A DNA stretch of 56,696 nt, the filler included, from Bipalium vagum (taxonomy: Eukaryota), in NCBI GenBank assembly GCA_037834085.1. It is 3 parts of 3 records of this genome, joined end to end, with 100 filler letters (N's around TTAATTAATTAA, not from the genome) between each part and the next. Parts side by side here need not be neighbours in the genome. Positions count along the whole stretch, not along the records: positions 21,602 to 41,019 come from JBBMKC010003543.1; 2 more parts are not named here. One strand, 5' to 3'. The notes beneath the pieces were generated by a model. It saw only the letters and a list, made by a program, of their open reading frames with translations, did no database searches and was not told the origin of the DNA. Shown in pieces: positions 22,873 to 48,940 of the stretch (its first letter is position 1; every line of letters begins with the position of its first letter). The position numbers and the translations under genes are program-made.

Positions 22873-24269
22873 TATTAGGTGTACAACTATGACTTCGGCT
22901 TTTTTTTAAATGACAATAAAAATTTTAGTTTGCATATATATCTAAATTATATTGGGAAGAATTTCGGTAGATGTACCACCAAGGTCATCTTTTGTTTAAA
23001 TATTTAATTTAACATTTTATTTTTAATATTTATTGTTAGATGTCAGGGGTTATTTCAGCAGTTATTTCAGCTATAATTTATTTCAATTATAATGCATTAC
23101 TTGAGATATATATTAATAAAGCTGCTTTATTTGATTAATTAAAACAAGCGTCAAAAAGTGGTACATCTACCGACAGAGATTCTTACATTGAATTGATTTA
23201 TAAACAAAAATATCATATAATTAATAATATCACGAGACAGTTGTTTTAATATTCCTTGTTTAAATATTATAGCGATTCAAAATGTCGATATTCATCCCAA
23301 ATAAACGACATTTGCGGGAATTAATTCTAAATTACTTTATTGCCAAACACACTGCAGCGGAAACGTACCGCTTCCTTCGAGATGCCTTTGAAGACCATGT
23401 CACAAAAACAATGTGAAGATAGAGATTTGAGAAGGCTTTTGAACGAAGACCCATGCCAAACACAATCTGATCTGGTTATCGCATTAAATGTGACTCAGCA
23501 ATACATTTCAAAACGTCTAGAAGCTTTAAAAATTATTCTAAAATTAGGAATTTGAATCCCATATGAATTGACAGAAAGATGCATTGAACGGCGAAAAACA
23601 ATTTGTGATGTCCTTCTTCAGAGACAAAAAAGGAAAAGTTTTTTGCATCGAATTATCACATGAGACGAAAAATGGATTCGTTATGACAATCCAAAACGCA
23701 AAACAGCTTTGGTGATGCCAGGTGAACCCGGTCCATCAACACCGAAACAAAATGTCCACGGTTTGAAAGTTATGTTGTGTATCTGGTGGATCGGAGTGAT
23801 CTATTACGAATTTTTAAAATCTTCTCAAACACTAACTGGTGAACTTTATCCATCACAATTGAAGCAAGTTTTGAATGAAAAACGACCGGAATTGGTGACT
23901 AGACACGAAAAGATAATTTTACAACATGATAACGCAAGACCACATGTTAATTCAGTTGTAAATAATTACTTAGAAGGTACAAAGTTGGAAGTCTTACCTC
24001 ACCGGCCTATTCACCAGACATCACTACTTCGGATTACTATTTGTTCTGCTCTTAGCAATCAGCACTTTCCAGAGAGCGGTTCAGTTCCCTTGAAGACCTC
24101 CAAAATTGGATTGTCAGCTGAATTTCATCAAAAGACCCAGAGTTTTTCTTTCATGGAATTCATTCGTTACCTGAAAGGTGGACAAAGGTTGTAGTTTCCA
24201 ATGGAACATATTTTCAATCAATGTTTTAAAATAAAATTTGTAATAAATGTCTTTGTTTTATACCTAATA
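22873..24269 (+). mobile_element. Near full-length mariner (mauritiana/Mos1-like), pseudogenised
   Basis: Left TIR TATTAGGTGTACAAC, right GTTTTATACCTAATA; ATG 23282 MSIFIPNKRHLRE; *IPYELTER, RIIT*DEKWIRYDNPKRK, HDNARPH, YSPDITTSDY, PERWTKVVVSNG; internal deletion and stops. Confidence 0.92.
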
Positions 24270-27498: not shown

Positions 27499-29450
27499 TA
27501 ATAGGTGTACAATTAAGTTTTAAAGCGTTTTTATTAAATGTATTTCTTCAATGTAATCTTTTATAATAATTATTTCTTTGTAATCATTTTTATTGAAGAA
27601 TTTTATAGGTTTGTTTTAATGTTTTAGAAATAGAAACTATTAATGACAAAGTCTTTATTCGCCACGCATTTCCTGTGAATTTCAACCTGAAAATCCGCTG
27701 CAGATGCTTATGCATTGATTTGTTTCATATTTGGAGATGATTTTTTTTTCAAAAGTACTTGTGAATTTTTGTTTCGCAGATTTCAGAAAGGAGATTTCGA
27801 CGCCAACGATCATGAAAATATCGAGGCTTCCTCTAACGCCAAATATACCTATCTTCAAGTTTTGATAGATATAAATTCATCACAAACGTTAGAGGAACTT
27901 ACTGAAAATATTGAAATAATTTAACAAGTGATTTCCAGTCAATTGCGTGCCATGGGAAAAATATGAAAGTTGAAAAAAAGATTTACAAATCCGTCTGGAA
28001 TAGTCGGAATTTTTGCAGAGAAGCGACCTTGGCTTCCACTTGAATGCTCGCGCCACGTCAGAGATAATTGGGCTTTGCAAGCGATTGTTGTTGCACTTCC
28101 AGTAGCTGGTTGTGTAAGGACTGACGTAATTGGAGACCTTGATGTCAGTTTTGGACATCATTGAAGAAACTATATTGATACCTTGGCGTGTCAATCAAAA
28201 TGGGGACATTGGGATTGCCCTTAACATAATCTGACGACTTCAATACCTGTTGGCTGAAGTCACAGAAATATATCGCGAGATCACAATTACGGGAGACCAA
28301 AGTGTTCGGCACAGTTATCGAAGTCGTGGGTGCAAACTCCAAAATTGTTCAGGCGAATATACCGATACCAGTTGATGCGAACAACTTAGTAGAGCAAGCA
28401 GTGTATGGTCATGATAATGATCTTCGGCAGAGTGACCATCAAGATCTGGTCGCCAAGATGGCTTGCAGGCTCAACTGGATCGAAGTCGATCAAATTGTTA
28501 TTGCCCTCACAGTTAAGTTCAAGCTGCACGATGAGGAAGCACGCAACGTTAAGCGTTTAGGCTATCGTAATGCTACGACTCGAATTCTCGACTAAGGGGA
28601 AACTCTAAATTTTTTGCTCTAAAAATTTACCCTATTGGGAGCCCATTGCCAACAATTATGAAGACAGTGCTGCTCATGATATTAACAACGTACATAACCC
28701 GCAGAAATCATCTGTTACTCATTAACCCCCCAACAGGCGAGAACATCGGAGAACCGCCTTGTAGAATCGAAAACGTCACAAAAAATCAAGAGACGTTTAG
28801 AATTGCTGGTTGGGTCAGACGTCTAAGTTGGCACTCCAACATACGAATTGAATATCAGTGGGGGATATCGCTACAATTCCGTGATTTAACATGCAACATC
28901 TGCTGAAATGGCAGATTGGTTATTCAATCCGCGCATGAATGCGCGATCTAGGCTGTTGCCAAGGTCAACAGACAATTTATACCGGACGGGGCTTTTTGTC
29001 AGAGGAAGTCTTCGAGATCAAGGCTTCTTTGGTTTTCAGAAAAGGGACACGAAGGATCTCGGGGAGGCGAGACAATCTGGTTTATCTTTAGAAAAGATAG
29101 TGACAGACTGTGGGAGCTCTCAAGAGAGTTCGAGCAGTGATGGTCATCTAAAGGCCACACTTGGCGGGGCAGTGGGTTCGAAGATAACAGAGATGTTGAG
29201 TTCTTGAAGAAACTTAGTCAGAAAAATAAAGATGACCGTATCATCATGTGCTTCAATCTCCTTACTAGACCGCATAGGATTTTTTCTTTGTGGAAAATAA
29301 TCCCTGGTGATCAATTAGGAAAATCCTAAAAGATTAGAACATCTAGGTCAATCAACAAAACGTAGATCAAAACCTCCAGTTTATTGCAAAAACCTTTGTT
29401 GTGTATCTGATAGGATATCAAGGGAGTGTGATTTTATGTTGATTTTATAA
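27499..29450 (+). mobile_element. mariner pseudogene split by a 1.2-kb insertion (parts 27499-27982 and about 29198-29450)
   Basis: TIR TAATAGGTGTACAAT; STCEFLFRRFQKGDFD...SSQTLEELT...LRAMGKI*KL before the insertion; KLSQKNKDDRIIMC, LWKIIPGD, LCI**DIKGV after it. Confidence 0.85.
27983..29197 (+). mobile_element. GC-richer insert, probable decayed 3' half of an R2-superfamily (RLE) non-LTR retrotransposon
   Basis: Across frameshifts: Y*YLGVSI (RT domain 7-like), thumb-like ORF 28302-28595, then RYNSVI and IPDG/LFVRG resembling RHN and PD endonuclease motifs, in the expected order. Confidence 0.45.
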
Positions 29451-31280: not shown

Positions 31281-32040
31281 GGTCCGAAGAGAAAGCCAAT
31301 AACAGCCAATAAACTGCCACCTATGAAATTTCAAGCTTTTCTATTGGCTCCCATAGAAGCCAGTGAAATTCGATTCACTAATGAAGAATGCAATATGATC
31401 AAATTTGAAATTTTGGTGAACTTTGCGGATCAATTCCGCCATGTTCCTGCTCAAATGCCTGGATTATTTTTGCTGCCCGACGATTGGGCTATGCCCCAGT
31501 ATATCTGGGATGACAAAATTTCCAAAATCTCCGAACGTGCCAAAATTTTGCACATGTGGATTTTAGCCCTTGAGGGCGTTTTGCCACGTTTTTTTATCAA
31601 TATTATTCTCTATATGAGGCTCACCGCCATAATTCTGCCCATCTTTGCTGTTCATCTATCTTTATCGCCCAATTTATGGATAATAACTCCTTTCTATCAT
31701 CCCAACCTCCTAAAAGATCATCATACAACTCTCTATCCTCTCTCTATAGTAACTACCAATTTTTAAAGGCTTTTTACCCGTTTAAAATCTTGCCACTGAT
31801 GGGGAGCCTCAATCTATGTATATATATGTATTTTAATTTTTTTTATTTAAATTTTTCGAAAATTAAAAATTCCCAAATCCTGACCAAAACACTCTTTTAA
31901 AAATTTTTAAATTTAATAATGAAAAAATTATCTAAATCCGTGGCCGAGATCAAAAGTTACGGGACTTTCAATTCCCATTTGTTTATTAATTATTGCTTAA
32001 ATAAAGTTTATACTTAAATATAAGTTTATACTTAGAGTTA
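31281..32040. other. Unclassified inserted segment (long 5' UTR of the retroelement or a separate non-autonomous element)
   Basis: Lies between the Tc3-like 5' part and the NeSL-like coding region; ORF 31323-31766 has no recognisable motif. Confidence 0.3.
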
Positions 32041-32049
32041 TTTCTTACG

Positions 32050-35000
32050 TTTTTAAACATTGTTCATCGTCTGTTTCACATTGAATTTCGGCCCTCTCAT
32101 TAGAGTTCGTCATCTGGCTCTTTCTCTTTTCGTCCCCTGGCCATCCTCTACTTCCGGTTGCCTTCCGGTTTTGTCCTCTTCCAATAATATTCTGTTGAAA
32201 ATCGACCATTTCCTTATGGAATTTTTTACCATCTTTGGTGCCTTCTATCATCTTTATGTTCACCTTATGCACCAACAGCTCCTCTTCGCTGCCTCGGTGA
32301 GTGCGGTAGAGTCCCAAATTCTTCGTCTGATGGCACCCAAACAGGTCAAAATCTAATATAATATGAGCTTCTGGAGGACGTTTCAGAACACCGAATATGC
32401 TCCTCCAGAAGCTGCTCCTTCTTCGATTGCTTCCTCTGAATCCCCTTCTACGGCTCAACGACATCGTCGGTGTAACTGACTCCGAGGTAAAGATCAAAAA
32501 CAAGACACTCAGTCAAAACCTCCTCCGCATCCGGCCCCGTCTAAGCTTGAATCTCTCCTTATTTCCTGCCCAAATGGCTCTTCCTCTGGCCGAACGGTGA
32601 CAATCAAAAGTAGTCTGAGTATACCTCCAGAGAGTGGAACCCGTGAATTTAATTTGTGGAATCAGTTTCCCACCATCCTGTAGTAGCTTCCTCGCCTGCT
32701 TCGCTCTCTCGCTGTGTCTGCATCACCTCGATCCCCAGTTCTCCTGAGGTTCTGGAGGTGAATGTTGAAGACCAGATTTCGGACTCCCTCTCCATGGACC
32801 AGACTATTAATCTTGGTGCTATCAATTTCTTTGGTGACACCGAGGACAATATCCCGGTCATTGCGGTCGCCCTCTCCCTGGATGTGCTCAAATGTGCGCA
32901 TTGTCGTAAGATATTTGGATAAACATCTGGCCCAGGTCCACCGGTTTGAGTTGAGTGGCTTGCAGGTGTACAAGTGCGTCTGTGGGCTGATCCTCAATCG
33001 GGAGGCCTTCTTCCCCCATGTGCTCACCCATAAGCGGGCATCTTCCTCACCTCCGATTTACTCACTGGACGATATCCCTGTGACGGAAGATGATAGATCC
33101 TCCAGTTGACTCAGAGGACATGCAATCGAGGCCTATTTGAGGGCCAACATTTTGGACCCCCTTGTCATCTTTGTTAGGCCCGGGCCTGCGATTGCCCTCA
33201 TGCAGAGGAATGCCCGCGACTTTTATTCACTCTTTCCTTTTCACCGCATGTCCCAGTGGTCCATCCTCCTTTGGCCCATCCTTTGGGAGAGGAAACACGG
33301 CTCCTCCTCATTGTTGACCACGCTCTTTCGTGTTCCTTCCTCCTCGATCCAGCCAAACCCTCCTTGTCTCGCGAGCAACTGGAGCTTCACCGTACCCTCA
33401 ATACGGTTATTACGAAGCTCTGTTGCACGCTTGAGACAAATACCATCACGGAGGGATCCATCCCTGGTCTTCCTCTCCAGGAATCCACGACAGATTGCGG
33501 CTTCTTCATCGTCCAATATGCTCTGGATTACGTGGGGGGCTGCCGGGACTCTTTTACCACCCCGGATATCGCCGCAATGAGAATTTCTTTGGCATCCATT
33601 TTCGACGACATCCTCAAAAACCGGGTGTGTAGACCTGATGTTGCTCCTGCCATGCAGATCCATCCGATCCTGAATGAAGGACTCTCCCTCCTTGATCCTG
33701 CTGACCCCTCCTGTGACCTTGACTTTATCCTGGATTTTGTCAAACGCGCTGCGGCTCTACTCTTTCCGGCCAGATTTGAGACCAAAACGGTCAAGGGCCC
33801 AGCCTCGGCTCACCAGGAGAAGGCCAGCTCCTCTGCCTATCGTCTCCGGCAATCCTATGAGCTCAATCCGAAATCTACCTTCCTTGATCTTCTTCCGAAC
33901 GCCTTCCTCGTTTCCGGCATGTGATGATATCTTATCTCACTTCTCCTCTATTGCTCCGCCTCCGGTTGACACCCGTTTACATCCTGCTCTCAAATCCTCT
34001 GCCTTTGCGGGGCTCAGGCTTCCTACGAATGCTGCGGAAGTCGTCAAGGTTTTCAAAACGACTTCCACATCCTCTCCGGGCACTGATGGCCTCACCTACT
34101 CTGATTGGCGAGCCATCGACCCGGAATGCGTCTTCCTTGTGGCCCTTTTTAACCACATTCTTCGTCATTGCCACACTCCTAAAACATGGAAGACATTCAA
34201 GACCCTCTTGAATTTGAAGCCGGGCAAAATCAAGTTCTCCCATCTTCCAGGGTCTTGGAGGCCTATTGCTATAATGACAACATCTTATCGCCTATTCGCC
34301 CTCCTTCTCAACAATCATCTTCTTGATTGGATAATCCCGGCAGGCCTTCTGCACCACAATCAGAAGGCCATCCACTCACAGAATGATTGTGGGGAACACA
34401 ACGAAACGATTGTTGGCCTGTATGAATATTGCCGCTCGATCCAGAAGGAGCTCCATGTGTGCTTTCTGGACGTTGCAGAGGCATTTCCCAGTCTGCCGCA
34501 TGAGCTCCTCTGGATCACCCTTCGGAAATCCGGTATGATTGATACTGATATCAGGCTCCTTCAAGACATTTACGCGGACAACTCTACCTTCTAAGTATGT
34601 CATCACCTCACTACGCCATCCATTGACATACATAGAGGGGTTAAACAGGGTTGTCCGTTATCCATGTCTCTTTTTGGCCTTTCCAATAACTTCCTCCTCG
34701 AGCACTTACAATCATATGCCAACCGCCTCCAAGTGTTCGGGGACACCTTTGATTGCTTAGCGTACGCCGATGACATCGCGGTCATAGCACCCTCACACGG
34801 TAAGCTACAGACCATGATTGAGGCCCTCTCTGGTCTTACCAAGGCAATTCACCTCTCCTTCAGACCGATCAAGTGTGGCTACCTTTGCCTTGGTACTCCT
34901 TATTCATGGCGAACTTGTCCCTCCTGTGGATCCTGCCCATGTGTACTCCTATCTAGGGGTTACACATGGCGCTGACCTCCGTACCTCCACGGATGTGATC

Positions 35001-35645
35001 CTTGAAAGGAACCTTGACGATTTCAGTCACATTATCCGCTCCGATTTGCATCTGGCAATATATATATCTGGCATTATCCACTTATATAAGACATTTCTGC
35101 ACTCGCGACATCCATTCCACTTCTCCAATCGTGTTGTGGACCACCTTACACTTGCGTCTAAGCAGGCCCGTCAAGCCCTCCATCGCAAACAGCAGACGGG
35201 TTACACGGTGGTTTTTTGTTTATTTGGTTGTGTAGTCCCAGTTTTTTATTTGTTTTCTTTTGTCTTTTACCTTTCGGTTTTATTTTATAGTAGTCTTACA
35301 GTATAATTGTGTAAAGTTTATCCTAACGATCCCCTTTTTATTATCCCCCTGTATAGCCACCTGGGTCCTACTGGCCCGCCTTTTATCCATAGTTTGTGTG
35401 ATTTGTTGGAATTTTTGTTGGTTTTTTTTCCTATCCCCACTGGCAGATGTCGACTGCATTGAGGATAGAGATCAAATTAATCTCATTAATGAGCCAATGT
35501 GCTTGGTCCCGACCCTTAAATTGCTTTTATGTTTATTTTCAGGTATCGCGGATGGAGCACATTGTCAACCATTAATGACTGAGAGAACAGTATATGGTTA
35601 AAATTTTGTTGTCATTTACACTGTACATATAACAGTCTGTAGTGT
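32050..35645 (+). mobile_element. NeSL/Utopia-type non-LTR retrotransposon (R2 superfamily): 2 C2H2 zinc fingers, Ulp1/C48 protease, RT; pseudogenised, endonuclease part missing
   Basis: GC-rich island. CAHC..HLAQVH and CVCG..HVLTH fingers (32890-33035); *LRGHAIEAYL, KH(W)LLLIVD, LLDP, LQESTTDCGFFI (Ulp1); SPGTDGLTYSDWRAIDP, WRPIA, FLDVAEAFPSLPH, RGVKQGCPLS, LAYADD (34763), YLG; T-rich 3' region 35200-35645. Confidence 0.9.
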
Positions 35646-35646
35646 T

Positions 35647-35930
35647 GATAATAAATAAATATTTCCATGAAAAAAAGTTTAGAGGTCCTGGTAGCTTTAA
35701 TTGCTACTGGCATGATCTTCTCAAAGATAATTATATCAATCAAAAGATCGATGGGTGGAAGCATTTTTATTATTTTGGGTGATATTTCGGAGGTGATATT
35801 AGTATCGTGATGCAACACTTAATACTGAAGGTTATCGAAAACATACTTAGTCAAATAATTAAAAGATTTGGCACCTCAGATTTGCAAGACAATTTTCAAA
35901 AGCTACTTATGCAATGACTTAAAATCATCT
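35647..35930 (+). mobile_element. Tc3-like transposase, catalytic part resuming after the insertion
   Basis: HEKKFRGPGSFNCYW(fs)HDL...RSMGGS...LQDN, matching Tc3 FSDEKKFNLDGPDG..YWHDL..GGGS..QQDN. Confidence 0.7.
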
Positions 35931-37229: not shown

Positions 37230-39990
37230 AAAGAAGCTGAATTCAATCGAATATAGAAGCGTCATCAAATTTCTCGTATTTTGTGTAGAATTGAATGACA
37301 ATATTGACATTCAACAATCCGATACTTGTGAGTTAAATGTCCTTCAAAAATGACTATTTATTATTGGATTGCCGAATTTCATCAGAAAACGTGTTTATAA
37401 TGTTGAGCGCCTTGGTGGTATGTACTATACAAATTGAACAGAAGAATATTTAAAGAAACGAAGCGAGTAACTGGAAAAAACGAACGTAGAATTACCATCA
37501 AGGGCTGACAAGTGGGGTTAACTTTTTGGTACTATTGTACAAAAAAATATATACATACTAAAAAATAGTGTGTATGCAGAGTTTTTTGACTAAATACACA
37601 CTAAAAATAGTGTGTATGCAGGGTTTTTTTGACTAAATACACACTAAAAATAGGCATTTGATGACATCAGACATGTCTAATCCCTTTTAGAAAAACATCA
37701 TTTTCTGCAGAATTTTGTGATTAATAAATTTAATTAATTTGTGATAATATATAAATGTTCTGTATTAATTTATGCAAATTAATTAAAGAAACAGACAACA
37801 TGACATTAATAATATACACACACTATATACACTTTGTTTTATTTATATACATTTTAATTTAATACACACTATTTTATTGCGTGTGTATATTTTATGTATA
37901 TATATATGACTATTTTTATTTAAATACATTTTATTTTAATATGGCTACTATTAATTCACTTGATGCATTGAAGAATATGACCATCACAGATATAAGTAAT
38001 ATTTATTTATTATTAATTAAAAATAATTTATTATTCAGCAACCAAAATAAATTTACCGGAAGATTTTGTAGATTGGCTATGAAAATTGGAATTAATCCAT
38101 CATATTCGAATATGGTATAACTGTGGAAATCCAATGACATTGTCAAGGAATGTGAACAAATGGATATGTCATCGCCGGAATTGCCGTGTTCAATGTTTAA
38201 GGACACATTCTTCGAAAATGCGCACATTCCAATAAAGAAAACAATACTTTTAATTTTCTTTGGTGCCATGAATTAGGAACGATAGCGGAGCAAGAATATC
38301 AAATTGGAATATCTCAAAAATCCATAGTGCAGTGGAATCAATATTTTCGAGACATATTCGTCACTGACAAAAAATTGGAGGAATTGGAAAAATAGTCGAA
38401 ATTGATGAGACATGTGTCTCCAAAAGAAAAAAAAGACATAGGGAGAATTATACGTCCTAATCAATGGGTGTTTGGTGGTAAAGAACGTGGATTCCCCAAT
38501 TCATTTTTAATGCTCGTGGAAAAGCGAGATGCCAGTACTCTCCTACCAATTATTTAGCAGTACATTCTTCCCGGTAATTATTATTCTAATTTTCGTAAAT
38601 ATTCATAACAATAAATTTGTCCCAGGTACCATAATAATGTCAGACCTGTGGGCCTCGTATGGCGGGATTAGAAATCTGCCGCAGGGGTATTCACACTTCA
38701 CGGTAAACCATTCACAACTGGAGCTCATACCCAAAATGTGGAGAACATGTGGATCTTCAAAAAAAAGATTATCTGCAGGAATTCTTGTGGAGGCAGAAAT
38801 TCGGCAATCGATCCGAAATATTCTACCAATTTTGGTCCCATGTACAGTTGACATATTGTTATAAATAAATTTTTAAAAAATAGTTGTTATTATTATTATT
38901 GTCATGTTGTCTGTTTCTTTAAAAAATATTTTTAAAAATCAACTTACCCAACATCAAGACTAATTTGCATAAATTAATACAGAACATTTATATATTATCA
39001 CAATATAAGAACCACGAGTATGAAAAAATTTTCGAAAAAATCAAGATTATTGTTTTTATTAATTTTTAAATCTACTATTACATCACAGGGGTTTTTTGTT
39101 GTCAACCTGTTTATAAATTCAAATGTCATCAAATGACTATTTTTAGTGTGTATTTAGTCAAAAAATCCCTGCATACACACACTATTTTTAGTGTGTATAT
39201 TTTAATGGAAATACACACTACACAGGGTTTTGTTTTGTACAATAGTACCAACTCTTTCTTGCACAAAACGTTAGAAACATTATCATCTCTCGGAATTAGC
39301 AAGTTGTCATTGAGATTTGTCCAACGTTTCCTCACTCCAGAGATGTTTGAAGATCGCCTACACAGTTATCAGAACAACATGGTTAATAGTTTCTTAAGAA
39401 TATTGATTGTGAATGAAAAGCCTCTTACATACCTCACAGCAAACGAGATTCTTGAAGGGATACTCAAATCAGAGAAATGGAAAATGAGATTAGGTTTTTC
39501 TCACCAGTGAGCATTGATGCTTACTATTATCTGTAAATGAAGTAGACCCATAAAAGTAAATTTTGTTGACAAGTACGTTAAGATAAACAGTGCTTTCTTC
39601 GTTGAGCTGATCGCTCAGAAATGCTTTCTACGACGAAAGCCTACAGGCCTATTCCTAGGGCTCTTGCAAGACAATGCACAAATCTGCAAGTCTTCTCTTC
39701 TCCACTGCCATCATTAATGCTGGTTTTACTGTTGTCTCATCCACCATAATTTGTAGCTTTTTTGATATTTGAAAAAGGAAATCCAAGGCAGACAATTCCA
39801 ATAATCTATTGTCTGATTTTAAAGCTGGCAGTGATGTAATTTTTATCAGAGCGTGAGAACAATATCTACCAAGGAGTGTTTTAAAAATTCGTGCATCGGT
39901 GGGAGAAGTGTATCTTGAACAACTGCAGTTATAATGAAAAACAAATGTATATTTTCTAATTATTCATTTTTATTAAAACTGATTGCTTGA
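37230..39990 (+). mobile_element. mariner pseudogene hosting the Merlin insertion (parts 37230-37527 and 39250-39990)
   Basis: IEYRSVIKFL and TIYYWIAEF before; LGISKLSLRFVQRFLT, LLQDNA, HRWEKCILNN after. Confidence 0.8.
37528..39249 (+). mobile_element. Merlin (IS1016/IS1595-like) DNA transposon, full-length, pseudogenised, with long TIRs and an intron
   Basis: TIR GGTACTATTGTACAAAA / TTTTGTACAATAGTACC; 8-bp TSD AACTTTTT / AACTCTTT; KIGGIGKIVEIDE, QWVFGGKERG, KRDASTLLPII, ILPG^TIIMSDLWASY, HFTVNHS, HTQNVENMW. Confidence 0.92.
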
Positions 39991-46984: not shown

Positions 46985-47470
46985 ACCAATAAACGGAAAA
47001 TAAAGTGACACTAGGTGAAAATCCGACTCCAACAGCACGAGATGAATTACATCAAGAGAAAGTCTCTCTATTTTTTGTGGGATTATATTTGAATAATCCA
47101 TTTTGAACTATTAGAATGTGGTCAGAGAAATAATGCTGCAATTTATTGTGATCAATTGAAACGGTTACATCAACAGCGATGTTTAAACGACCAGCATTGA
47201 TAAACCGGAAAGGGATAATTTTCTTGCGGAATTATGCAATACTTCATTCCGAAAGAATGACCCAAGAGAAAGTTAGAAACCTGTGATGGAATGTTTTATC
47301 ATTCTTCCTATTCAATTGGCATAGCTTCGTCAGATTAATATTTATTCTCTATCTGGAAAATGATTTGAGAAAAAAGTCATTCCAAGATATTGATGATGTC
47401 AATTATTGAATAACTGCTTTCTTCGAATACAATGGTAGTAAATTTTTATAAATGAAATCGATAAGCTTGA
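46985..47470 (+). mobile_element. mariner catalytic/C-terminal remnant
   Basis: GENPTPTARDELHQEKVSLFLWD, HFELLECGQ, YCDQLKRL, RPALINRKGIIFL, YSIGIASSD*YLF. Confidence 0.8.
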
Positions 47471-47479
47471 AGAACGTTG

Positions 47480-47835
47480 AAAAACCTTTATCTGCTAAGC
47501 TAGTATTAAAATCATTGGCTTTTTGTAAAAAACAACATCGTGTCGATGTTGCTAAAGAGATGCTGGAGCAAATAGAAAATGATCCAACATTCATCAAGCG
47601 TATTATTACTGTTGATGAGACATCTGTTTACCAGTTTGATATGCTGACAAAGCAACAGTCCAGTAAAAGACGAACTCCGAATGAACCAGGACCTAAAAGA
47701 ATTCGACAAATGCAATCAAAAATCAAGACTCTGTTAAACGTTTTTATGGATTATCGTGGTGTAGTTCATCTTAAATTTCTCGCAGAAGATTGTACCGTAA
47801 TTTCAGACTATTATTTACAAGTTATGCGTCATAGT
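47480..47835 (+). mobile_element. mariner (irritans-like) middle fragment
   Basis: ORF 47452-47910: SAKLVLKSL..QHRVDVAKEML..DPTFIKRIITVDETSVYQFD..TKQQSS..DYRGVVH. Confidence 0.85.
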
Positions 47836-48940
47836 ATAATAAAAAAAATTACTGCAAGAAGAACAATAAGATTTTATATGTCCTATAAATTGCTATACAT
47901 CTCCTTCTGAAGTCTAAATAGGTTCTCAAAAATAATTCCTGTTTAATAAAACTTTCTATCAAGGTTTCCATTATATTTTCCTCTTTTTTATTAAGAAAAG
48001 AAGGGGACGAGAGGGAAATTCTCCTAAGTTTTTTTTAATATTATTAGAAAATTCACAAAAAAATTGCCTTACGTGATAAATCTTCAAACTTTTATAATCA
48101 AACCCGAGAAGCACATTTTCATAATTAAAACTTTATAATATCAAAATAATATATATATTATTAGAGATTAAATTTATTAATTTAATTATTTAATAATTAA
48201 TTGAGTTAAATAAAACAAAATTGAGATTAATTATAAATAAATAAATGAAGAAATAATGAGGAAGTTATCGTAAATTAAAGGTAAACGTTCTATTGATTAA
48301 TATTAAATTTTATGATGATATTTCTAAAGAACTCAGTTTTTCAATTAACTAATTTAATTAAATGGGTTCATATGAAGAACGACGTCGTTTAAAGTTTCAC
48401 GTTTTCTTTGAGAAAAAAAAACTTTTTAATTGTATCAACCCTGTCTCGCGAATTAGAGACCATGAGATACTTAATTATCTTTCTATTTTGTTTTTGTCGG
48501 TCATAATACTGACAAACAATAAGATCTCCTGATTGTAATCAATGATAATGATATTATAATGAAAACAATGAATCTCATTAACATTTTTCGTTTATGATAA
48601 ATTGGCAGTTCTTCTTCTTACATCTGTCTTGCGTGCTTTCCTCTTTAGCGGTCGGTTATAAACAATGTGTGACAATGGAAGAGAGGTTGATTTTGAGAAC
48701 AATTTGCGAAATTTGTTCTTTGGTTTTGTTCGTCCTCATTTCTCCGTTTATTATCTTACTTGGATGTCAGCTATTATTCCAAGCATGACGATAATAATTA
48801 TTATTCATATGTATCAAATATTCCTGTACATTATGCATCTAGGACAAAATAATAGACAACTTAATTAACACGTTCTTCACAATAATATTAGAAACCGAAA
48901 AAATAAAGATTTCATTTCATTCTGATTGGATTATATTTTT

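Follow-up and report, generated by a model that had tools for sequence, protein, structure and literature searches.

A family of retrotransposons without long terminal repeats (non-LTR) carries a conserved in-frame UGA stop codon at a tryptophan of its Ulp1/SUMO-protease-like domain, and comparison of its copies suggests that this stop is probably read through now and then, presumably as Trp. One copy lies in the window, that is, the whole 56,696-nucleotide (nt) stretch analysed here (filler included) from the Bipalium vagum assembly GCA_037834085.1, a pack of three stretches with the element in the middle one, for which the match in the genome (G000) is contig C3543. At the stop, an upstream open reading frame (ORF1) meets ORF2, which encodes the rest of the protease (peptidase family C48) and the reverse transcriptase (RT). 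A preliminary description of this DNA had read the TGA at 33107 as a damaged TGG. Comparison with sister copies speaks against that: TGA stands in 70 of the 79 aligned copies and TGG in one, and TGA is, judging from these sequences, the normal state of the family and not decay. It is this conserved stop, more than the C48 domain, that is the unusual feature of the element.

The Ulp1/C48 domain itself is real. Searching the genome with the second of the window's two protease pieces gave 150 matches scored from 351 candidates, and the 117 loci fetched (all loci below have the prefix L) amount to 102 distinct element places. In the window, TGA 33107 and the catalytic codons CAC (His) 33296, GAT (Asp) 33346, CAG (Gln) 33478 and TGC (Cys) 33496 all stand where the preliminary description had put them, its peptides WPILWERKH, LLLIVDH, LLDP, PLQESTTDCGFFIVQY and FTTPDIAAMR were found in the frames it had given, and the 1-nt deletion it had placed after the His codon is decay, the base being present in nine of the nine sister copies in which the motif was found. 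While the window's own two protease pieces gave no C48 match in Pfam (0/2), Peptidase_C48 (PF02902) exceeded the curated cut-off in eight of nine unbroken ORF2-type sister frames, five long ones passing RVT_1 too, and all 22 domains spanning the junction matched C48 at E ≤ 0.01. The profile also matches SENP2, SENP1, Ulp1 and SENP5 sequences (13 matches). Several sister loci contain naturally open frames of 1,018–1,144 amino acids (aa), and most copies retain the catalytic set (His in 95/100, Asp in 94/101, Gln in 89/100, Cys in 94/99), whose order, His-Asp-Gln-Cys, is that of the triad plus oxyanion Gln in C48.

Structure prediction agreed with the profile. AlphaFold2 models built with W at the stop position scored 89.4 and 86.9 in predicted local distance difference test (pLDDT), and Foldseek aligned the fold to Ulp1/SENP structures with an E value of 1.5e-8. 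Model residues 15–196 align to Ulp1 429–615 (Z 19.2, root-mean-square deviation 2.5, 177 residues); matches to SENP1/2/3/5 and Ulp1 range from Z 17 to 19, those to the NEDD8 protease from 16 to 16.5. The domain thus resembles cellular Ulp1/SENP (MEROPS C48, clan CE) in Pfam family PF02902, catalytic set and fold, yet differs in having only about 20% identity and in being embedded in a retrotransposon polyprotein. A word-index search with residues 1–300 of the L034 ORF2 returned no homolog at E ≤ 0.001, and a scan of viral contigs returned no relative. As had been claimed, zinc fingers lie 5′ and RT (RVT_1) lies 3′ of the protease; past the RT, the long sister frames go on to encode a CCHC finger and then the endonuclease motif PD...D-x-K (L031–L036). 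This motif order bears out the suspected NeSL-like layout: zinc fingers, Ulp1-like protease, RT, CCHC finger and PD-(D/E)xK endonuclease follow one another as in Utopia-1_TSP (Trichinella) and NeSL-1 (Caenorhabditis), and the W...HW...D...Q...CG motifs are likewise those described for Utopia/NeSL in the covered part of PMC4640811.

How conserved is the stop? Among the 79 of 102 places in which the junction could be aligned, the codon is TGA in 70, TAA in three, CGA in two, TGG in one and something else in three; TAG never occurs there. At 78% identity clustering, 28 of 30 clusters have TGA, and median pairwise nucleotide identity over the 150 nt 3′ of the stop is 47%. In favour of a decayed TGG, or of a host code in which UGA means Trp, dead copies do show TGA at other Trp sites: at four control Trp columns of the same copies, 22 of 388 codons are TGA, with 336 TGG. 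The frequencies are far apart, however (89% at the junction vs 6% at the control sites), and TGA is also present in copies whose frames are otherwise open over 1,018–1,144 aa. Decay of a TGG at 33107 is ruled out by the 70/79 copies and 28/30 clusters with TGA. As for a changed code, eight ORF2 frames contain 111 TGG and no TGA, Trp is TGG at 16 of 16 positions in four actins, the L034 ORF2 terminates at TGA, and a tRNA anticodon-arm pattern was found at two places, both CCA. The Trp codons of ORF2 and actin and the TGA ending the L034 ORF2 imply the standard nuclear code in the host, and taken together we give decay or code change almost no credence.

The stop falls on a defined residue. An X placed at the stop occupied one alignment column in 22 of 22 junction translations; in 17 single-ORF relatives, chosen by us from 48 protease-bearing matches, that column holds Trp 15 times, Tyr once and a gap once. 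Ulp1 domains of NeSL elements and of cells have been aligned before (PMC4640811, S5 Fig), and that alignment, as far as covered, opens with a W column. Both the Trp of the relatives and this W column place the stop on the conserved protease Trp. This Trp probably helps clamp the Gly-Gly of the substrate. Moreover, the fold match begins 16 residues 5′ of the stop (AlphaFold2 residues 15–30 align to Ulp1/SENP), so the tail of ORF1 encodes part of the protease domain: in sister copies ORF1 is a long low-complexity frame that has two zinc fingers near its end—with a weak zf-BED match in Pfam—and closes with about 16 residues that open the protease fold. Throughout divergent subfamilies ORF1 and ORF2 share one frame, and the long sister frames start at one shared Leu, right after the in-frame stop that closes the upstream ORF.

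This arrangement bears on whether ORF2 could instead be translated on its own, through reinitiation or through internal, possibly non-AUG, initiation after the UGA; its protease would then lack the first strand, the helix and the Trp. Termination-reinitiation has been described for other bicistronic non-LTR elements, SART1 and LINE-1 (PMC5972666, covered in part), ORF1 is highly variable, and an A-TGA overlap is present in 14 of 68 copies. The ATG of that overlap, however, is out of the ORF2 frame and not conserved. No conserved in-frame AUG lies near the junction, and the first in-frame Met of ORF2 wanders between residues 29 and 139, within the protease domain. Nor would reinitiation need a fixed shared frame, a near-exclusive TGA (70, with three TAA and no TAG) or a split fold. 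We consider separate initiation unlikely.

Readthrough of the UGA is further suggested by its context. The next codon is CTN in 67 of 70 copies—CTA in 43, another CTN in 24, CTC in the window copy. Most copies have CTA in 21 of 28 TGA clusters, yet this codon makes up only 14% of ORF2 Leu codons. UGA-CUA is the motif of type II readthrough (PMC3159437, in the part covered); the type II context, UGA-CUA or UGA-CGG, is present in the CUA copies. CTAGGC follows TGA in 24 of 70 copies, and contexts derived from CUAGGC gave >15% readthrough in OPRL1 assays according to the covered part of a 2026 review (PMC13517186), which also gives Arg, Cys or Trp as the residues mostly inserted at a read-through UGA. 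The alphavirus nsP3/nsP4 junction offers a parallel in its UGA-CUA, its in-frame polymerase 3′ of the stop and, as in some subfamilies here, a long-loop stem (PMC3159437, likewise in part).

In the element, the predicted 3′ stem starts about 9 nt past the stop (about +12). For the window copy it scored z −4.9 and −3.8, with a duplex of −27.0 kcal/mol as compared to −10.0 kcal/mol upon synonymous recoding. The stem is strong in the window subfamily and in L064 and L070, moderate in L033, L034 and L094, and absent in others; it is a possible subfamily-specific helper of readthrough.

Two further explanations were weighed. Decoding as selenocysteine through a selenocysteine insertion sequence (SECIS) would fit a stop that is nearly always UGA and a genome that has tRNA-Sec(UCA). 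However, an Rfam search of 10 loci, some of which include 3′ untranslated regions (UTRs), gave no SECIS match at E ≤ 0.5, though it can miss divergent ones, and no ribozyme match either; the relatives have Trp rather than Cys at the position, and ordinary TGT/TGC codons specify the catalytic Cys. Selenocysteine is therefore very improbable in our estimate. Removal of the stop in RNA, either by adenosine-to-inosine editing, which would make UGA equivalent to UGG, or by splicing, is a slightly fainter prospect still. A single edit would turn TGA into the expected Trp codon, and some subfamilies have stems near the stop, but these begin 3′ of the UGA, which thus lies outside them. No AG acceptor position is common to all copies, the best being shared by 37 of 68 and lying within a conserved Glu codon. 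As new insertions are copied from RNA, an edited or spliced state should have become fixed in DNA as TGG or as intron-less insertions; TGG is seen in 1 of 79, and intron-less insertions were not found.

Relatives beyond this genome put the stop in context. The protease is present in only three of 80 metagenome loci (L122, L123 and L124). In L122 and L123, TGA-CT stands where the window family has its stop. In L124 an in-frame TGA-CAA (L124:2283–2288) lies about 18 codons 5′ of the usual site, shortly behind the final zinc finger; 734 open codons lead up to it, 1,148 follow, and the usual Trp position is Arg; this stop may have been relocated or gained independently. In a tree built quickly from RT sequences (69 rows, all kept and with no named NeSL, Utopia, R5 or LIN reference among them), the elements of this genome (G000) fell with L122 and L123 into a 20-row clade (Shimodaira–Hasegawa-like approximate likelihood ratio test 99; deep nodes weak), and L124 into a sister clade. 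The TGA clade is separate from the clade that includes one named nematode protein. Database proteins of the TGA clade that match the protease (proteins only) begin inside the domain, nearly all at Met, as expected where a stop lies upstream. Whereas Utopia elements 'generally encode one protein' (PMC4640811, in part), here the frame is divided by the UGA at the Trp of the protease. The clade does have one lineage with a continuous frame: P0266 is one ORF, and its cluster representative P0161 belongs to this RT clade, so that a natural example of the fusion exists. Replacement of the stop by a sense codon in some relatives is also known from type II readthrough systems.

A number of points weigh against readthrough or narrow its basis. 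The 23 remaining element places have no aligned junction, element copies are related to each other so that the counts overstate independence, and DNA beyond this genome amounts to three contigs. The relatives left out of the 17 include P0025 (Tyr) and P0161 (Glu) at the stop column; P0161 and P0266, with Glu at the site and one continuous ORF, indicate that neither the stop nor the Trp is indispensable in the clade. In part, CTN after the stop simply follows from conservation of the Leu. Against synonymous recoding, the stem reached p ≤ 0.05 in 23 of 49 copies, 10 of which belong to the window subfamily, and the control pairing was shifted too (mean z −0.7 vs −2.2). RNAalifold over the 49 junctions gave no consensus structure. 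Covariation score and percent paired exceeded all 500 shuffles for a structure drawn from one subfamily, and two of five stem measures failed against shuffles (397 and 498 of 500).

With readthrough as the favoured reading, we propose the following course of events. Most ribosomes would stop at the UGA and release the ORF1 protein, comprising the low-complexity region, two zinc fingers and a 16-residue protease stub. A minority would decode UGA-CUN by a near-cognate tRNA, aided in some subfamilies by the 3′ stem, to yield one ORF1–protease–RT–endonuclease fusion. The stop would set the ratio of ORF1 to RT, as in gag-pol readthrough. It would act as a gate for the protease as well: only readthrough would yield the whole domain, and with Trp inserted the domain would form best. 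Moloney murine leukaemia virus gag-pol likewise has its stop inside the protease, as the fifth protease residue (PMC13517186, in the part covered). Unlike alphaviruses and this virus—RNA viruses and retroviruses—the present case is a non-LTR element, and the codon that would be recoded stands for a conserved structural residue in a cysteine protease.

What the protease might cleave is a separate matter. Chances are about even, in our estimate, that its substrates are host ubiquitin-like conjugates, SUMO first; its own polyprotein appears a somewhat weaker candidate. Polyprotein processing at Gly-Gly found no support in the TGA clade, which lacks a conserved Gly-Gly before RT; this makes self-cleavage less likely here and tilts the choice, by a weak step, towards host conjugates. 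It counts against any firm assignment that it draws on fold similarity and a missing motif only. The sister clade does have such a motif: GG(G) occurs 14–35 residues past the first protease domain in nine of its 11 protease-bearing proteins and is a plausible candidate self-cleavage site. The proteins with this motif are P0008, P0010, P0014, P0017, P0020, P0023, P0099, P0126 and P0165; several have two protease-like domains. In the clade with the named nematode protein, P0028, P0041, P0049, P0074 and P0025 carry N-terminal LRGG, MRGG, LRAGG or LKAGG, like ubiquitin-like tails; as far as motifs can tell, these are possible sites for the elements' own protease.

The host is probably a flatworm. 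The preliminary description had suspected that it was not a nematode, and cytochrome c oxidase subunit 1 (COX1) agrees, reading in genetic-code table 9, which is common to flatworms and echinoderms. The assembly contains three different COX1 sequences (L118, L119 and L120), of which two read best in table 9 and one is unlike them, seemingly from a different animal; the two have AAA at Asn sites, ATA as Ile and 46–49% T, and further sequence features that we take to be characteristic also point to a flatworm. The assembly is likely to be mixed DNA, and some element copies could come from a second animal. With a host outside the nematodes (COX1 in table 9), the element is not NeSL-1 in the strict sense; it shares a probable flatworm host and probable NeSL-clade membership with R5 (Girardia) and the LIN families (Schmidtea). 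R5 has two ORFs, and their boundary may be the same junction. Published targets of R5 and LIN are 28S rRNA and tRNA genes, whereas here the preferred target is U2 small nuclear RNA (snRNA).

Evidence for this target, which the preliminary description had not noticed, comes from 3′ junctions. The 3′ end of L031 adjoins the 3′ part of a U2 snRNA, matching the intact variant U2 gene L264, and six U2 fragments begin at nt 41–42 of intact U2, four with a clear element 3′ UTR upstream. U2-like junctions were found in six of seven further L031-family copies (query excluded) vs 15 of 179 controls (8%), and in seven of 26 window-family copies vs 29 of 717 control windows (4%); the window copy's own flank is not U2-like (off-target). 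In the two subfamilies surveyed, 3′ junctions were either U2-like or mutually unrelated. Rfam returned no rRNA match in 10 loci and one weak tRNA match, 3′ of L124, itself a locus outside the clade. Utopia inserts at nt 39 of U2 snRNA, so the junctions lie within a base or two of its site, and specificity is weakened in crocodilian Utopia; the Utopia host table lists no flatworm (all from the covered part of PMC4640811). Within U2 snRNA genes, then, it is the Utopia site that the endonuclease favours, more loosely so in the window subfamily.

Some observations on these loci stand by themselves. The intact variant U2 gene (L264:420–610; G000 C245753) has the branch-site recognition region GTGTAAGAA, where L262 and L263 have GTGTAGTAT; the element flanks match the variant of L264. 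The 5′ half of a U1 snRNA lies about 490 nt 3′ of the L034 ORF2 (L034:6519–6615). L039, L213, L215 and L048 possibly reflect stacked insertions with target duplication: behind the L039 copy lies another ORF1-like frame, and about 19 U2-like bases, then similar shared sequence, are seen at three 3′ ends. L035:3–3431 is an ORF1 (1,143 aa) whose beginning resembles the window subfamily and whose end resembles the LGSHQ subfamily, either a recombinant or an assembly chimera.

The window copy is dead: ORF1 is partly deleted, protease and RT are broken, and the endonuclease region is lost. Its features are collected in Table 1. GC content is about 50% within the element against 20–30% in the background. 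The RT is interrupted by a TAA at 34592 and by frame shifts near 33900 and 34900; the CCHC/endonuclease region of sister copies is missing, the copy being about 0.6–1.4 kb shorter between 35204 and 35372–35420. At the 3′ end, AATAAA precedes a 7-base A run (35670–35676).

Table 1. Features of the element copy, in window coordinates
Feature	Position	Strand	Basis or remark
Decayed restriction-like-endonuclease (RLE)-type non-LTR retrotransposon copy (NeSL clade, Utopia-like)	31460..35676	+	blastn to sister copies, 31460–35663; the 5′ limit 31460 is where homology ends, not a fixed boundary
ORF1 remains	32216..33106	+	Stops, frameshifts; about 1.1 kb gone relative to L047
Zinc finger 1, CxxC ... 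HxxxxH	32893..32941	+	Broken by a deletion in the window copy; intact in L040, L047, L050
Zinc finger 2, CxC-x10-H-x3-H	32975..33031	+	Motif
Ulp1/C48 protease domain	33059..33610	+	His 33296, Asp 33346, Gln 33478, Cys 33496
Conserved in-frame TGA with the CTN after it, on the Trp of the WL motif in the protease; readthrough predicted here	33107..33112	+	Sister copies, relatives
Predicted long stem (33119–33134 with 33182–33202), candidate readthrough stimulator	33119..33202	+	Folding scores
Reverse transcriptase and start of thumb	34070..35204	+	RVT_1 matches, tblastn; YADD at 34763
3′ UTR and A tail	35372..35676	+	Sister-copy comparison

Upstream of ORF1, a 161-codon open frame at 31281–31766, whose core (31460–31587) is common to L040 and L035, gave no Pfam match; it could represent 5′ UTR or else a piece carried along. 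Elsewhere in the window are mariner-type transposase fragments (Transposase_1; 23664–24194 and 47452–47910), a broken frame at about 38250–38500 with IDET...KRK...QWVFGG motifs, which we take to be a Merlin/IS1016-type transposase, and a GC-richer island at 27889–29207 (43–47%) with several frames of 100–120 codons and no Pfam match over the cut-off.

The presence of Ulp1 in NeSL-clade elements was already known; in the covered part of PMC4640811 such a protease is reported only in nematode elements. Apparently new, as far as the literature covered goes, are above all the conserved UGA on the protease Trp, and also the probable flatworm host and the U2 preference in this probable flatworm; flatworms would thus seem to join the range both of U2 targeting and of the layout with a protease. 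In the literature covered—Repbase and the R5 and NeSL-1 papers lay outside it—we found no report of readthrough in non-LTR elements, and the covered part of PMC13188248 makes no mention of a 'stop codon'. The full scheme is one we hold tentatively, at rather less than even confidence: clade-wide UGA readthrough on the Trp of a SUMO-type protease would set the ORF1:RT ratio and switch the protease on, the inserted residue would decide its activity, SUMO would be stripped from host silencing factors, and flatworm U2 genes would be targeted.

Gene callers truncate such proteins, the nearest database relatives beginning at Met inside the protease. Since the stop lies on a conserved enzyme residue, protease activity could report the inserted amino acid. 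What the Ulp1 domain does for elements of the NeSL clade is unsettled in the part of the literature covered, and the TGA clade and its Gly-Gly-bearing sister clade offer a natural contrast between self-processing and host SUMO. To our knowledge, production of ORF2 in non-LTR elements is understood in few cases; in trypanosome elements, StopGo makes the ORF2 product. If true, readthrough would add a retrovirus-like route to ORF2 expression.

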